From the IMG/VR virus record IMGVR_UViG_2703718869_000027: a stretch of DNA of 13,537 nt; one strand, given 5' to 3'. Position numbers: made by a program. This stretch comes from a virus. Its lineage: Duplodnaviria > Heunggongvirae > Uroviricota > Caudoviricetes. This document shows positions 6,001 to 12,000 of this stretch, one piece after another (positions within the stretch are counted from its first letter, which is position 1; each line of letters opens with the position of its first letter).

Positions 6001-9000
6001 CTGGCTGATTGCTGCATCGGGTGATGATGCAATATGCGTCAATGACTGAATCCTTTGTTGTTCTGAATATCATGAAATTAAGGGGGTGCAGTAATGCAGC
6101 AAATAACACTGGCAGAAGCCTCACTGCAAGCGCAACAGGTCGAAGTAATTAGCCGCATGATTGAACGCAACCACGAAGAAATAGACGACCATGACCTTTC
6201 TGTTATTGCAGGACTTATCAAACAACTTTCCAGCAATGTGGCGGTGTGGTTAATGACGGAGGAAGAAAAACGCGGCGAACAATAACGGCTAAAAATAAAC
6301 GGGAAATAAATATTAAGACGACTCCTTCAGGAGATTAATTCAATGGCATCAAAAAATACTGGCTTAACTGCCAGTAGCAAAACTCACCCCGAATTTATGT
6401 GCGGGGATATTTACCGCAATGAATACGGTAGCCACATGACGATGATCAGCAGAGGTAAGAAATGAAAAGCGCACCGAACTTAAAAAAACAGCCTCGAGGG
6501 AAAAAACACGCCGATACGGAAGTGATTATTTTCGCTGGCAGTGATGCGTGGGCGCACGCGAAACAGTGGCTGGAGCAGGACGGAAAACTTGCCGGAGATA
6601 ATATACCGCCCGTCGTGCTGGCTGATGAGCAACTTAAAGATATTGGCAATCTGCAAATTGTACCCGACGGGCGCAAATCAGCGCGTATATACAAGGCCGG
6701 ACACCTCGATCAGGTGATGGTCAAAGGCATAGGTCAGAAGCTGGCGGCGGCAGGCGTACAGGACGCAGACTATTACCCCGAAGGTATGCACCATAACGAG
6801 CGGCAGAACTGGCGTAACTATCTGGAGACTGAGCGCAAAAACATTTCTGACGGGCTGGTTATTGAGCTGCCTGTAAAGAAAAAAGAGCGGGGAAAAGGTG
6901 ATGATGCCACATCACTGGCGCTAAACCAGATGGGGGCAAGCCAGCGCGGCGAAGTTCTTCTGGCACATTATGGCGGCGAACTGGCAATAAACGCAGACTC
7001 TGACACAGTGCATTATTACAACAGTGTTGTATGGGTTCCCGTACAGGATAAAGAGCTACAGCGCACAATGGCGCAAATCTTCATTGACGAAGATATCTGC
7101 TATTCACAAAACGCCATAAAATCGGCGGTTGATACCATGAAGTTAAGTTTACCCGTAATGGGGAATACCGCCCGCAACCTGATTGGATTCAGTAACGGGG
7201 TATTTGATACCCGTACAGGTGATTTCCGTGAACACGATAAAAATGACTGGCTGTTAATTGCCAGTGAATTACCGTTCACCCCACCAGCAGAGGGTGAAAC
7301 GCTGGCAACACATGCGCCGAATTTCTGGAAATGGTTGCGCCGTTCGGTGGCTGAGAATGACCGCAAGGCAGATCGCGTTCTGGCAGCGTTATTTATGGTG
7401 CTGGCGAACCGGTACGACTGGCAGTTATTCATTGAGGTAACAGGTCCTGGTGGAAGCGGTAAAAGTGTTATGGCAGAGATTTGTACCATGCTGGCAGGTA
7501 AGGCCAACACGGTATCGGCAAGCATGAAGGCACTGGAGGATGCAAGGGAACGTGCATTAGTGGTTGGCTTTTCACTGATTATTCTGCCGGATATGACCCG
7601 CTACGCGGGTGATGGTGCAGGGATAAAGGCCATTACGGGCGGTGACAAGGTGGCAATTGACCCGAAACACAAAGCGCCATACTCAACGCGTATTCCGGCG
7701 GTTGTGCTGGCGGTTAACAACAGCGCCATGTCATTCAGTGACCGCAGCGGGGGGATCTCACGTCGTCGTGTGATATTCAATTTTTCGGAGGTTGTACCGG
7801 AAAACGAACGCGATCCGATGCTGCCGGAAAAAATAGAAGGTGAGCTTGCTGTAGTGATTCGTCATCTGCTTACACGGTTTGCTGATCAGGACGAAGCCAG
7901 ACGCCTTTTATATGAGCAGCAGAAATCAGAAGAAGCACTGGCGATAAAGCGTGAGGGGGATTCGCTGGTGGACTTCTGCGGCTATCTCATGTCGTCGGTA
8001 ATGTGTGACGGCCTGTTAGTCGGTAATGCTGAGATTATTCCTTTCAGTCCACGCCGTTATCTTTATCACGCCTATCTCTCGTATATGAGGGCACACGGTT
8101 TCAGTAAGCCCGTAACGCTGACGCGCTTCGGTGCAGATATGCCAGGCGCAATGGCAGAATATGGCAGGGAGTATATGAAAAAGAGAACTAAAGAAGGTGT
8201 GCGATCAAACGTGATACTGACTGATGAGTCTGAGGACTGGCTACCGTCATGTGCACCAGTGAAAAATGATGGTGATAAAAATTAAGTTATAGAAAAACTG
8301 TTCACCACTGTTCACCCTGCAATAAATGTATTTAGTATCAATATGTTAAGGGGTGAACAGTTTTGTAAAACTATTCACCAAAGTGTTCACCTGTTCACCT
8401 TTTTGTATGATTTTTGAACAGTCACGGGTGAACAGGGTGAACAGTTGGTGAACACCTTTACAAAAAGTGTTCACCCCTTAACTTCATGAATCTAAAGGCG
8501 AAATAGCAAAAGGTGAACAGTTGAACACCTTTTGGGCATAAATTTTTATTTATTCCTTTGAGAAAAATTTTATGACAGAGAAACACGCCAAAAAATCACA
8601 TTCACACGCTATCGATTTAACCGAACCGGAATCTGTTGTGAGGTTCGTATCGGTACGAGGCAGAGCCACGCTTTATATACCTGACGAACATCTGCATCAC
8701 TGTGACAAACATAAACTTCCGATCCTGATTGTCTGGAAGCGAACGGTATACGCCGATGTGACATGGCTGAATGATTCGCTGATGTTGATACACCGTGACC
8801 TGTTTGAACGTGAAGAGTTCCGGCGGGATATTGAAGAGCGGGCAGAAAAAATCTATGAGAAATATTCAGCAAACAGCAAAAGATCCGCACGGGCAATCGC
8901 TCACCATTTCATGACGCTGTATGACCTGAAAGCGGAAGATGCAGAAAAAGCGGCATGTGATTTATTCGATATGACAATGGGGATTATCCAGGAGTACCGG

Positions 9001-12000
9001 AACAAGGAGCGCAGACCATGACAGCACAGATTGCAGCTTACGGGCGGCTGGTGGACGACCCGCAGGTAAAACAGACCAGCAAGGGAACAGCGATGACGCT
9101 GGCGCGTATGGCGGTATCTTTGCCATGCAGTCAGGCACAGGACGGACAGGCGACGTTATGGCTATCAGTCCTGGCATTTGGTAAGCAGGCCGACGCGCTG
9201 GCGAGACATGAAAAAGGCGGCCTTATCAGCGTGGCGGGTAACATGCAGATCAGTCAGTGGACCGGACAGAACGGAGAAACACGGCAGGGCTGGCAGGTTA
9301 TCGCTGACAGCGTAATCAGTGCCCGTTCGGCGCGTCCTGGCGGGAAGCGTGGGCAACAGGGGAAGGCGACCGAAGCACTGGAAAGAGCAAAACGACAGAC
9401 CGGACAGCAGGGAAATCAGCCACCAGCGGGAGGTGATGACCCGTTCTCTGACGATATTCCTTTCTGAATGACAGGAGCACAACATGAACCAGCAGACCAC
9501 ACAACAGGACCAGACCACACGCAGACCCACGGAGCGCCCATCATGGCGACACATGACGAAGCGGCAGCGAAAAAACCGCAGGAGGATAAACCGACTGGCT
9601 GAGTACTGGCCTGAACTGTTTGGGGCAGAGACGATAAAGCCCCTGAAAACGGGCATAATACGTGATGTGCTTGAGGACGCTAAATCACGGGAATTACCGA
9701 TTGGTCATGGCGTATTACGTGGCGCATTAACCTCATACATCCACACGACGCGATACCTGAAAGCCATTGTCGCTGGTGGCCCTCGGTATGGACTGAACGG
9801 GCAGCCTTGCGGGGAAGTGACGTCGGATGAAAAAGCCGTAGCCCGTGGGATACTGAAACAGCGACTGGAGCAGATGAAGCAGAAAAACATCCAGCAGTAA
9901 TCAGCCGGAGGTAAAGCCAGTGATAACGGACAGCGTGGCACAGAAACTTGAGGAGCGCGGTTTATGGCGACGTGCGGCGACCCGATGGTCTGAGGTTCTT
10001 CTTCACGCAGAAACAGACAGGGAACGCGAGGAAGCTGCCAGACGTCGGGCGATATGTATCATTAAATCCCGTCGTATGCCTGAGCAGTTTGTCACCTTTG
10101 GCGATGTGAAAAAGGCCGCAGACAGAACGCTGAAAGAGATGGGGATTAATCCACAGGATGAATGGCGAAATTACAGCTTCAGTGATGCAGGCGACGATTT
10201 AGCGCTATCGTGATACGCATCTCATCGCCGTATTTGCTCAATTATCGCGATTCGCTATAATCACCACCGAAAGGCCGTTGATAGTGTTCTCCTCGGGCAA
10301 CTGGAGCCCGACTGAATGAAGCCAGCCAGCGGCTTTTCGGCACTCATTCCGGTGTATCTCCCATACATCGGGATGAGTGAACGACGAAAACATCACGGTG
10401 ATTTCGTCATGCCGCGATAAGAATGCGCCTCTTTGGGCAATTGAAGCCCTCTGTACAGCGGGTTATCGCGGCAAAGTTGTGATAAAAACGCGCCTCTTTG
10501 GGCAACTGGAGCCCACTGTAAAGCGGCTTATCACAGCTGGCGGTAACGGGCGCTCATCTCCGGGCAACTGAAGCCCTCTGTACAGAGACCCGTTACGGCT
10601 GACCCTGAATGATTTCTGCCACGTGCAACTGGAGCACCCGGAGAAATCTTTCAGGGTTTTTTATTGCCCCTCCACCAGCACCACATCTGTAGCATTGATG
10701 CGTATACATTCGCCGTCAATTGCACCATTCCGGCCCTCACTGTCACGCGCAACAACAGAATGACCAGGCAGGCCATAACGCGCCACCTTTCGACGAACAT
10801 CATGACCAACGCTGTCACGCCGCTCATACACATTAACCCGCTCAAGAAGACCATCACGCACCATTGCTTCCAGTGTGCGCCTTGTTGATTCGATCTGATG
10901 CCGGTTGTTGTGTGAATCCATGCCATACAGCAGGTAAGCCACACCGGAGACATCAAACGGCGGGTTGCCAATTTCAACGCTGACCCACGCCAGATTGTCA
11001 GGAGTGAAGTAACTGAGGATCTCTTTTTTGTATTGCGTCAGTCTCATAGTGACCTTTCTTGTTGTAGGATGAATCCCTCATACAATAAGCCATAAGGCAA
11101 ATTTTGAAAGGACAGAATCGGCGGGGTACAGATGATACGTGATGACAAGGCTGAAGCGCTGGAAGCACAAGGGTTATGCGATGGGTTGCGGCAATATGAG
11201 GCAAATATGAATATTCAAATTGTTGTGTTGTGAGGTACGCAAGATGAAAAAAATTGATTCTTTACGAATAAGTAAAGTAGCTATTATATCAGTATCTTTA
11301 TTATTTCTTAGCGCGTGTTCTACAAATAATATTGAGAATATGCCGAGAGATGCGCGTGTAAAATTTGCTCTAATGAGGGCTTATTCAGATAACAAGTTTG
11401 ATAATTCAACAGTTATCGGCGAAGTGTTAGGATTGAGTTGCGCCAGACAACTTGGAAAAACATTAGTAACACCATTGCCAGGGGGAAGCGCTATTGCTAC
11501 ATCCTCTGAGGGCGACATTACTTCTGAGTCGGATGCAATACAGGACATGCGATATAAAGCCGCAATGATGGGAGGTGATGCCATAGTGAACGTTGTATGT
11601 AAATCAGGTGGTGTTGACTGGATTCATAACTGTTGGTCAACTGTTAAGTGCGTTGGTGATGTAATAAAAAAATAACAGTTGCCATACTGAAGGTATTGAT
11701 TAATACATGGAAACTGCAATTACGACGTGTGATTGCAGCTTACCGTTAGCTACCCCTGTTACAATTGCCCTCTTCCATCACAGCAAAATGCTACCCCCTT
11801 CACAGCCCCCCCCTCGGAAGCCCCTCCGATGGGGTGAAAAATCCCTGAAAAAATGCGCAGAAAATTGCGCAAAAAACTGCGCAAATCGATCATAAAACCG
11901 ATCACAAAATCGATCATAAAACCGATCACACAGACCAGCAGAGAAAAGCCAGGTATGACGCGGCTTGCAGGGGGGAAAGGCCACCGGAAAAAGTGCGCAT

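Follow-up and report, generated by a model that had tools for sequence, protein, structure and literature searches.

What do four tightly packed genes placed directly after a replication origin do for the mobile element that carries them, and do their products act on the host or on another phage? This question is raised by a stretch of 13,537 nucleotides (nt) from a virus of the Caudoviricetes (IMG/VR record IMGVR_UViG_2703718869_000027; the whole stretch is called the window below), in which an original prediction, made from the sequence alone, had placed a coupled operon. Its four open reading frames (ORFs) are indeed present on the + strand between 8572 and 10213: ORF1 (8572..9021 in the ORF table), which encodes an orphan protein of 149 amino acids (aa); a gene for an SSB (single-stranded DNA-binding protein; 149 aa, 9018..9467); a gene for a FinO/ProQ-domain protein (138 aa, 9484..9900; proQ below); and a gene with a GTG start for a PerC-family protein (97 aa, 9920..10213; perC below). 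The prediction likened this set to the leading region of a plasmid and suggested an influence on host gene expression. Our analysis showed that the operon is followed by an array of related hairpins, a candidate RNA, and the sequence relations of the island point to Shiga toxin (Stx)-converting phages, as helpers, rather than to the host as the likely target.

An array of hairpins follows perC

The stop codon of perC is separated from the next gene by 447 nt, and this gap holds an unannotated element (10214-10665). From about 10270 onward, seven consecutive hairpins are predicted on the + strand, five of which are copies of one unit; over 403 nt the minimum free energy (MFE) was -178 kcal/mol, and the z-score relative to dinucleotide shuffles was -8.97. 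The motif GCAAYTGRAGC occurs five times on one strand, against 0.06 expected, with its cores at 10297, 10437, 10502, 10564 and 10625, and the last four units are spaced by 61-65 nt. In the MFE structure, unit 0 (10270-10337, +; 20.9 bits with our covariance model R1) is followed by two unrelated conserved hairpins (10341-10379 and 10383-10409, +) and then by units 1-4 (10410..10665, +), which match the covariance model with 67-92 bits.

Each unit is a nested hairpin. Its inner stem has 4 bp (GGGC/GCCC), its loop of 7 nt (AAYTGRA) and its internal loops are conserved, and its outer stem has 7-16 bp. The outer stems differ from each other (CGCGATAA/TTATCGCG, GTGATAA/TTATCAC, GTAACGGG/CCCGTTAC and ACCCTGAATGATTTCT/AGAAATCTTTCAGGGT), and the inner stem reads GGGC/GCCC, GAGC/GCTC, TGGC/GCCA, AGGC/GCCT or GTGC/GCAC across units and islands; that of unit 0 covaries between islands (GGGC/GCCC, AGGC/GCCT, TGGC/GCCA). 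Among 20 distinct units, both sides had changed in 11 of the 18 pairs and the inner helix was paired in 100% of cases, and the covariation score was 0.309 versus 0.209 in shuffles (0/500 as high) and 0.07-0.14 in slid controls, values to be read with the caution that the units are mutually related and that one subclass is out of register in the alignment.

The array seems to have its own borders. Unit 4 (10602-10657, +) folds as a hairpin and is followed by a run of six T within TTTTTTATT, and together they form a long intrinsic terminator on the + strand. At the other end lies a candidate promoter (10234..10261, +), inferred from conservation, with TTGCTC, a 16-nt spacer and TATAAT: the stretch 10231-10268 reads ATTTGCTCA(A/G)TTATCGCGATTCGCTATAATCACCACC and shows a single A-to-G change over six diverged islands, and the motif is also found in L138-L140 (such numbers are our labels of the compared island, phage or plasmid loci). 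The TATAAT at 10256-10261 is perfect and the -35 element TTGCTC is weak; we call the promoter only a candidate because the consensus scan scored it below threshold, and consensus scans for promoters and terminators missed both this site and the long bulged terminator. This promoter region is without a homologue in the phages. Right behind the T-run, sequence relatedness is lost in two islands, and such a mosaic breakpoint suggests that the stretch from promoter to terminator is one module attached to the perC side. Of 30 distinct units, 22 folded better as the + strand than as the complementary strand (mean difference 2.7 kcal/mol; p = 0.002 in a Wilcoxon test on units that are not independent), and indels of 1 nt and of 4-5 nt between islands argue against coding. 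Judged by these features, the stretch at about 10268-10665 is a candidate non-coding RNA of about 400 nt.

The array does not appear to be an element of a known kind. Rfam 15, which includes STAXI, C4 and CRISPR-repeat-like RNAs, gave no match at E <= 1 in 10214-10670, and a search of genome contigs with TTGGGCAAYTGRAGCCC returned only chance matches in unrelated taxa. The covariance model finds the unit in these arrays and at the phage site described below; it has no other match in the window and none in Sp7, 55989, Citrobacter, P4 or two plasmids. All nine island loci carrying this clade of ProQ protein have the array (9/9), and it is absent from Sp7, 55989, Citrobacter and L142. We considered a CRISPR array and rejected it, as there was no match to cas genes or defence systems and the sequence between the cores pairs across each core into the outer stems, unlike spacers. 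A type III toxin-antitoxin array, in which a toxin gene would follow the repeats on the same strand, was likewise rejected: the next gene is convergent or unrelated. In the window this neighbour is a 128-aa gene (10661..11047, - strand) without a family match, which stands next to the array in most islands, L138 and L139 being the exceptions, and its stop codon overlaps the array terminator. We did not find the array described in Rfam or in the literature searched, nor the phage homology of its hairpin reported below, nor a FinO-type gene together with an Stx-type Q on one satellite.

The hairpin and the antiterminator Q connect the island with Stx-converting phages

Homologues of the unit, 87-90% identical, occur in 183 phage records, almost all of Stx-converting Sepvirinae, and also in several hundred E. 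coli genomes, where they lie under genes annotated as LPD5/LPD38-domain protein. In the Stx2-converting phage 86 (NC_008464, 34143-34205), the hairpin is a single copy in a 60-kb genome, 24 kb from the terminase genes. It lies in frame inside gp35, a giant polyvalent-protein gene encoding 2,784 aa, at residues 1833-1853 in a linker just after the MuF_C domain. The hairpin is on the strand antisense to gp35, which is the direction of the early-left operon, and by sequence comparison the island array is oriented complementary to the gp35 mRNA.

Four phage alleles keep both stems via compensatory changes and the encoded peptide is not conserved, suggesting that selection acts there on nucleic-acid structure and not on the protein. 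The outer stem is GCCGCGATAA/TTATCGCGGC in the Stx2-86 and 933W-type alleles, ACCCTGA/TCAGGGT in the allele of Shigella phage 75/02, and AACCCTGATTA/TAATCAGGGTT in the IB14005 allele, whose inner stem is GTGC/GCAC. Unit 1 of the window is 89-91% identical to the Stx2-86/EC3283 allele, and unit 1 of two other islands matches the 933W-type allele at 61 of 63 positions; unit 4 shares the stems ACCCTGA/TCAGGGT and GTGC/GCAC with the IB14005 allele (75% identity), and unit 3 shares its internal loops with the 75/02 allele (77% identity). The similarity between island and phage is confined to the hairpin of about 63 nt, the flanking gene sequence being unlike. Upstream of the phage hairpin we found nothing resembling a promoter; a hand-picked candidate there, TTGCGA-17-TATTTT, agreed at 8/12 positions only and was discarded. 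A literature search on the pac site of 933W returned nothing usable.

The antiterminator Q encoded near the far end of the window (12643..13041, +; PF06530, 169.8 bits) is of the Stx-phage type. Its protein is 84-90% identical to the Q proteins of phi24B, Stx2 II, PA2, P13374 and many other Stx1 and Stx2 phages, which by sequence is a second, independent link to the Stx phages, and it could act on the late (stx) promoter of a helper.

The ProQ/FinO protein belongs to a minimal clade

The protein encoded directly before perC consists of a basic N-terminal tail and a FinO domain only (PF04352, 82.9 bits against a cut-off of 27, residues 31-135), and it ends a few residues past the domain. Among solved structures it matches the N-terminal domain of ProQ (5nb9, E 1.5e-11), FinO (1dvo, 5.6e-11) and RocC (1.3e-9). 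Genetic work on E. coli ProQ identified K35, G37, D41, K54, R58, Y70, L71, R80, D82 and G85 as important for RNA binding (PMC7192607). Eight of these ten residues are kept in our alignment, as K55, G57, D61, R79, Y91, L92, R101 and G106, corresponding to ProQ K35, G37, D41, R58, Y70, L71, R80 and G85, and the other two positions are substituted (K54 by H75, D82 by G103). The NCBIfam cut-offs for ProQ (127 bits, NF003434) and for the F-plasmid FinO (136 bits, NF010317) were both missed, with a score of 57 bits, implying a separate minimal clade that is an orthologue of neither; the linker and the C-terminal Tudor-like domain of ProQ proper have no counterpart in the 138-aa protein.

The gene is under purifying selection (dN/dS, the ratio of nonsynonymous to synonymous substitution rates, 0.23-0.26), and its product is 76-83% identical in amino acids to those of the relatives L002, L004 and L005. 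Its synonymous divergence from these relatives (dS 0.39-0.58) far exceeded that of the flanking ORF1, ssb and perC (0.06-0.12 in most comparisons), suggesting allelic replacement by recombination inside an otherwise conserved module. The characterised FinO-domain proteins of mobile elements each act on a cis-encoded structured RNA of their own element, as in FinO-FinP, FopA-Inc and PcnR-repR (PMC9977716). On the island, the candidate RNA ligands are the unit-4 terminator (10602-10665), unit 0 with its U4 tract, IsrK and C4.

The operon consists of conserved genes of routine families

The original prediction of a coupled operon holds. ORF1 and ssb overlap by ATGA with AAGGAG upstream, the gap between ssb and proQ is 16 nt and contains AGGAG, and that between proQ and perC is 19 nt and contains GGAGG; the four genes are packed like one translationally coupled unit. 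Searches with hidden Markov models supported the predicted SSB, ProQ/FinO and PerC families, all above the Pfam cut-offs, and ORF1, which had been called an unknown protein, stayed without a family match. The prediction would have been refuted by pseudogenes in close relatives, and these are sporadic: one relative has a frameshift in proQ, some have lost part of ORF1, and overall the four genes are under purifying selection, with dN/dS of 0.15-0.40. E. coli STEC2018-553, which carries a 99.6% identical locus, has them annotated by PGAP as hypothetical protein, single-stranded DNA-binding protein, ProQ/FINO family protein and PerC family transcriptional regulator. The operon as such is ordinary: it is already annotated, its families are routine, and the occurrence of PerC and SSB in phage-inducible chromosomal islands (PICIs) has been published.

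The SSB matches PF00436 with 57.4 bits (cut-off 26) over residues 5-99 and TIGR00621 with 69.1 bits (cut-off 53.95), and solved SSBs in the PDB match down to E 2e-11, showing a normal OB (oligonucleotide/oligosaccharide-binding) fold. It ends in ...GGDDPFSDDIPF and has the acidic DDIPF tip that had been predicted; the end ...QPPAGGDDPFSDDIPF is kept in the relatives L002, L004 and L005. Such an acidic tip (D-D-D-I-P-F in E. coli), carried on a flexible linker, binds partner proteins. The dN/dS of ssb is 0.15-0.40, and the protein is 77% identical to the SSB of Sp7/OI-51.

ORF1 gave no match in Pfam, NCBIfam, PHROG or PADLOC. Its family forms 20 clusters among 5.8 billion proteins, all from Enterobacteriaceae (E. 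coli, Salmonella and Pantoea), and its dN/dS is 0.22-0.37; the gene is partly deleted in some O157 islands (L005) and swapped for unrelated ORFs in other islands. An AlphaFold2 (AF2) model has an alpha/beta fold (pLDDT 79) with no significant Foldseek match in PDB or BFVD; the best weak matches resemble DHHA1 (RecJ/Cdc45 and the C-Ala domain of AlaRS; E about 0.1, TM-score 0.43), which we take as a lead only. One RefSeq record gives the label PX domain here, which we discarded because the similarity is at chance level.

The PerC-family protein matches PF06069 with 101.4 bits (cut-off 22.6) over residues 1-86 and is 42% identical to PerC of pMAR2 from enteropathogenic E. coli (EPEC; E 2e-23) and 50% identical to PchE; a match to the ANR anti-activator family is weak (19 bits) and below the cut-off. 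Its AF2 model is all-helical, with five helices, and found no fold match in the PDB, DNA-binding or otherwise (best E 2.2). For PICIs, PerC homologues that activate LEE1, an operon within LEE, the locus of enterocyte effacement, were reported to be 'some but not all' (PMC6092414); LEE1 fusions are reported not to have responded to the PerC-like genes of EcCIEDL933 and EcCICFT073, and to be repressed by the homologue of EcCIMP1 (PMC11773190). With PICI homologues inactive or repressing, a role as activator of host virulence cannot be assumed here and is unproven. Since perB precedes perC in EPEC as proQ does on the island, we considered EPEC PerB as a hidden FinO-domain protein; it has no such similarity and has its own Pfam family.

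The module recurs after the replication gene of other islands

A block of a variable ORF, SSB, sometimes ProQ, and PerC recurs after the replication gene in PICIs with other integrases, other replication proteins and other insertion sites. In Sp7/OI-51 of O157 Sakai (= EcCIEDL933), the primase gene is followed by a small hypothetical gene unrelated to ORF1, by an SSB gene overlapping it by 4 nt, and by pchE, an arrangement described in 2011 (PMC3378721). Islands at tRNA-Gly and next to ETT2 have a DUF927-type replication protein, different first ORFs and the same SSB-ProQ-PerC block; in strain 55989 and a Citrobacter braakii genome, ProQ-PerC comes directly after the replication gene without SSB, and in one island the gene behind SSB-ProQ is unrelated. 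This pattern suggests that the slot of the first ORF is variable, that SSB is often present and that ProQ and PerC recur as a pair. Genes of the PerC family were noted in PICIs earlier (PMC6092414, PMC11773190), and the presence of a ProQ/FinO gene in a PICI of Enterobacter was remarked on in 2026 (PMC13612085). The four-gene layout is the usual post-origin content of E. coli PICIs and not special. On a conjugative IncI-gamma/K1 plasmid, pYZMc10-2_113k (2753-5309), ProQ/FinO-family and PerC-family genes are also found, non-adjacent and about 1.7 kb apart.

The origin is of the P4 type

The replication gene upstream of the operon (6462..8285, +) encodes a helicase and origin-binding protein with D5_N, DUF5906 and Pox_D5 domains. 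It is 49% identical to the alpha protein of P4, solely over alpha residues 301-771, namely the helicase and iteron-binding part; the N-terminal primase part of alpha has no counterpart, though the protein is annotated as 'DNA primase family protein', so that the island probably depends on host priming. In the 285-nt gap after this gene, as the prediction of an upstream origin had implied, we counted ten perfect TGTTCACC/GGTGAACA octamers, all within 8299-8519, against 0.41 expected in the window. P4 has eleven perfect TGTTCACC octamers, recorded as 'ori type 1 repeat' in ori and crr, and its crr lies directly 3' of the alpha gene, as does this iteron cluster (8299..8519, not assigned to a strand), which we take as the satellite's replication origin. 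Because the octamers are the same as the P4 repeats, this is a P4-type vegetative origin or crr and not a transfer origin; a literature search on the octamer gave nothing usable. A plasmid leading region adjoins oriT/nic and is the first part to reach the recipient, and its ssb is accompanied by psiB, ardA and similar genes and by single-strand promoters. The predicted likeness to such a region was therefore not sustained: a vegetative iteron cluster lies beside an alpha-like helicase, annotation and domain scans contained no relaxase, oriT, psiB or ardA, the same gene order is the ordinary post-origin layout of PICIs, and all of the 283 matches of the proQ gene in E. coli genomes are chromosomal (283/283).

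Further upstream is an immunity RNA region of the P4/P1 type (5202..5430, +) with a c4-a1b1 target, in which Rfam recognizes isrK (5215-5294, 51.8 bits, gathering score 50) and the C4 antisense RNA (5343-5430, 81.3 bits, gathering score 45).

The window is very probably a nearly complete phage satellite

The window as a whole is very probably a nearly complete Gram-negative PICI-type phage satellite of about 14 kb with a replication and immunity backbone of the P4 type. In STEC2018-553 and in O157:H7, O103:H2 and O111:H8 strains, the island is inserted between the core genes yicC and dinD, filling a gap of about 14 kb. At least 80% of the 2.1-kb four-gene region is present in 104 of 5,426 complete E. 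coli genomes, and the hosts are mostly LEE-positive lineages of Shiga toxin-producing E. coli (STEC), namely O157:H7, O103:H2 and O111:H8. The gene order is integrase, AlpA, a Rha-type protein, a T5orf172 protein, a degenerate ash/antA region, isrK/C4 and small ORFs, then the replication gene, iterons, the four genes, the convergent 128-aa gene, a lipoprotein-like gene and the antiterminator Q. The tyrosine integrase gene (1..1323, +) forms the end adjoining yicC, has Arm-DNA-bind_3, Phage_int_M and Phage_integrase domains and is annotated likewise in three related islands; the AlpA-type regulator (2356..2571, +), a helix-turn-helix protein, scores 25.2 bits with PF05930 Phage_AlpA (cut-off 21) and also matches HTH_17. 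The published description of Gram-negative PICIs (PMC6092414) agrees with what we found, namely an integrase, alpA, a replication gene followed by the origin, a co-directional arrangement, a size in the range of about 10-15 kb, and no lysis or tail genes. None of sid, psu, delta, capsid, terminase and lysis genes appeared among the window annotations or family scans, nor did terS or a known redirection gene in its domain scans or annotation; because no sid, psu or delta was found, we did not file the island as P4-like in the strict sense.

The similarity to described Gram-negative PICIs (EcCIEDL933 = Sp7/OI-51, EcCICFT073 and EcCIMP1) extends to the integrase at the end, AlpA, the iteron origin behind the replication gene, a length of about 14 kb, the absence of lysis and tail genes, and an SSB and a PerC-family gene after the origin (PMC6092414, PMC11773190, PMC3378721). 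Unlike those, the island has the yicC-dinD site, a FinO/ProQ gene between ssb and perC, the five-unit array and the Stx-type Q. Whereas Sp7, a capsid-forming PICI (cf-PICI), has capsid and packaging genes, none were found here, and no rpp-like gene was identified on the island. With P4 it shares the alpha-like helicase and iteron-binding protein (49%), identical TGTTCACC type-1 iterons after the replication gene, the C4/CI-type immunity RNA and an AlpA/ORF88-type regulator; P4 differs in having sid, psu, delta and the primase part of alpha, and P4 itself lacks ssb, proQ and perC. The isrK-anrP-antQ locus of Salmonella likewise unites isrK RNA with a gene of the Rha/antirepressor type and an antiterminator of the Q family on a single island (PMC4825925), but differs in gene order and in the type of Q, that of our island being the Stx-phage type.

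Parts of the island are pseudogenized, with antA and ash fragments in the RefSeq annotation. A 258-aa T5orf172/MUG113 (GIY-YIG-like) protein encoded at 3351-4127 matches the PADLOC candidate defence family PDC-S57 (E 1.4e-8), and the corresponding homologous stretch is given in RefSeq as an antA/antB pseudogene that is truncated. An ORF of 527 aa (4075-5658) spans the isrK/C4 region; its translation looks low in complexity, RefSeq annotates ash and Icd-like fragments there, and it is probably not a real gene. Around these positions the window is about 316 nt longer than STEC2018-553. Two small paralogous ORFs (5840-6049, 69 aa, and 6094-6285, 63 aa), both of phrog_1478, lie just 5' of the replication gene. 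In some O157/STEC islands, two extra PerC-family ORFs follow 3' of the convergent gene (L002 13833-14304; L012 9866-10337; L140 5617-6088), so that these islands have three genes of this family each. A short non-coding tandem repeat (about 11850-11950), located between the lipoprotein-like gene and an ORF at 12173-12490, reads KPITKSII KPITKSII in one frame and repeats FMIDFVIG in the opposite frame.

Discussion

Taken together, the data led us to a picture of a satellite accessory operon aimed at the helper phage and accompanied by an RNA-chaperone array, a combined reading that we consider plausible, though it falls somewhat short of probable. Here the SSB would coat DNA unwound by the satellite helicase, and its DDIPF tip would recruit host replisome and primase factors, a role taken from established SSB biology; since the replication protein has no primase domain, such recruitment would be a sensible accessory. 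The ProQ/FinO protein may be a dedicated chaperone of satellite RNA, in the way that FinO serves FinP and FopA serves Inc. Its best candidate ligand would be the array RNA (about 10268-10665), which always follows perC in this lineage and whose 3' end is a hairpin plus U-tract, the ligand type of the FinO family. Being complementary to gp35 mRNA, the array could target the helper in trans as an antisense RNA; if the functional form in the phage is the same-sense strand, it might work as a mimic or decoy instead. In either case satellite RNA and FinO-type protein would tune helper gene expression in a 'fertility-inhibition-like' interaction between satellite and helper. The PerC-family protein would be a small helical co-regulator that may act on promoters of the island, the helper or the host.

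This resembles FinO-FinP-traJ, FopA-Inc and PcnR in several ways. A mobile element encodes, beside its replication module, a FinO-domain protein that is small and has a basic N-terminal tail, and nearby is a candidate stem-loop RNA with hairpin and U-tract, complementarity to an mRNA and conserved loops as in kissing-loop antisense RNAs (PMC9977716, PMC7192607). In those systems, however, the target is in cis, whereas here it would presumably be on the helper phage, and the RNA is a small RNA of one or two hairpins rather than an array of five units. We hold the specific mechanism, a FinO-type protein working with the array RNA, only tentatively and consider it somewhat unlikely. A fuller version, a trans-acting FinOP-like system in which the five-copy array RNA with its own FinO-family chaperone reads or represses helper late genes and the Stx-type Q could activate the helper's late (stx) operon, is in our view unlikely.

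Several points weigh against this reading. The links between island and Stx phages appear indirect, consisting of the identity of Q and the shared hairpin, and a close match to a phage allele exists for unit 1 only, units 3 and 4 being at 75-77%. That the array is an RNA was inferred from strand asymmetry and the terminator, and its promoter-like motif scores under the consensus-scan threshold. In the phage copies the strand preference is mixed, so that the phage element could work as mRNA, antisense RNA or DNA. Plain co-inheritance may explain why the ProQ clade occurs together with the array; ProQ-PerC islands that are more distant do not have it, and in the relative L004 proQ is frameshifted and the array is intact.

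Another explanation is that the array works as DNA, a multi-copy mimic of a cis site of the helper (for packaging, priming of replication or recombination, in single-stranded or cruciform form) with which the satellite captures a phage machine, ProQ/FinO and PerC being unrelated to it. Copies of helper cis sites are common in satellites, the array is near the SSB gene, conserved loops and internal loops with freely varying stems would fit protein recognition, several unit types could serve several helper alleles, and no terS, capsid or known redirection gene was found on the island. On the other hand, the phage has a single copy inside a late gene, 24 kb from the terminase genes, the G.U-type asymmetry favours one strand, and the promoter-like motif and U-tract terminator bracket the array in the same orientation; we judge this, too, unlikely. 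If instead nothing connects these parts functionally, the operon would consist of ordinary genes for replication or cargo on an island in decay, and the hairpins would be remnants of past recombination with Stx prophages, as the antA and ash fragments, the disruption of ORF1 and proQ in some relatives and the mosaic proQ may suggest. That view seems very improbable given dN/dS of 0.15-0.40 for all four genes, a phage similarity that stops at the borders of the hairpin of about 63 nt, the amplification of the unit to five copies with covarying stems, and a module that stays intact across islands with different replication proteins, integrases and attachment sites.

The host-directed, leading-region-like cassette of the original prediction, with ProQ/FinO and PerC acting mainly on the host, for example on LEE or other virulence regulons and on host RNAs, draws on a solid PerC family assignment (42% identity to EPEC PerC), on the prevalence of the island in LEE-positive STEC lineages and on the occurrence of SSB, FinO-like and PerC-like genes on conjugative plasmids, and the related PICI OI-51 does affect the LEE, via a different gene, RgdR (PMC3378721). 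It is difficult to reconcile with an oriV of the P4 type without any of the transfer functions named above in annotation or scans, with a gene layout that is generic for PICIs, with PerC-like genes of EcCIEDL933 and EcCICFT073 that were inactive on LEE1 fusions and an EcCIMP1 homologue that was repressing (PMC11773190), and with a PerC model that has no DNA-binding fold match. The island protein belongs to the same Pfam family as EPEC PerC and Pch of enterohaemorrhagic E. coli, but it has no perA or perB context. We therefore regard a mainly host-directed action as improbable.

The helper-directed reading concerns a satellite lineage that is common in STEC and has two independent sequence links to Stx-converting phages. 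The hairpin conserved inside a coding region of these phages, seen in 183 phage records, deserves attention as well. If the FinO-type protein does partner the hairpin RNA, this would be, to our knowledge, the first known satellite to turn a dedicated chaperone and an RNA, antisense or mimic, against its helper phage. If the satellite modulates late transcription or particle production of Stx phages, it would bear on Shiga toxin output and on the spread of stx.

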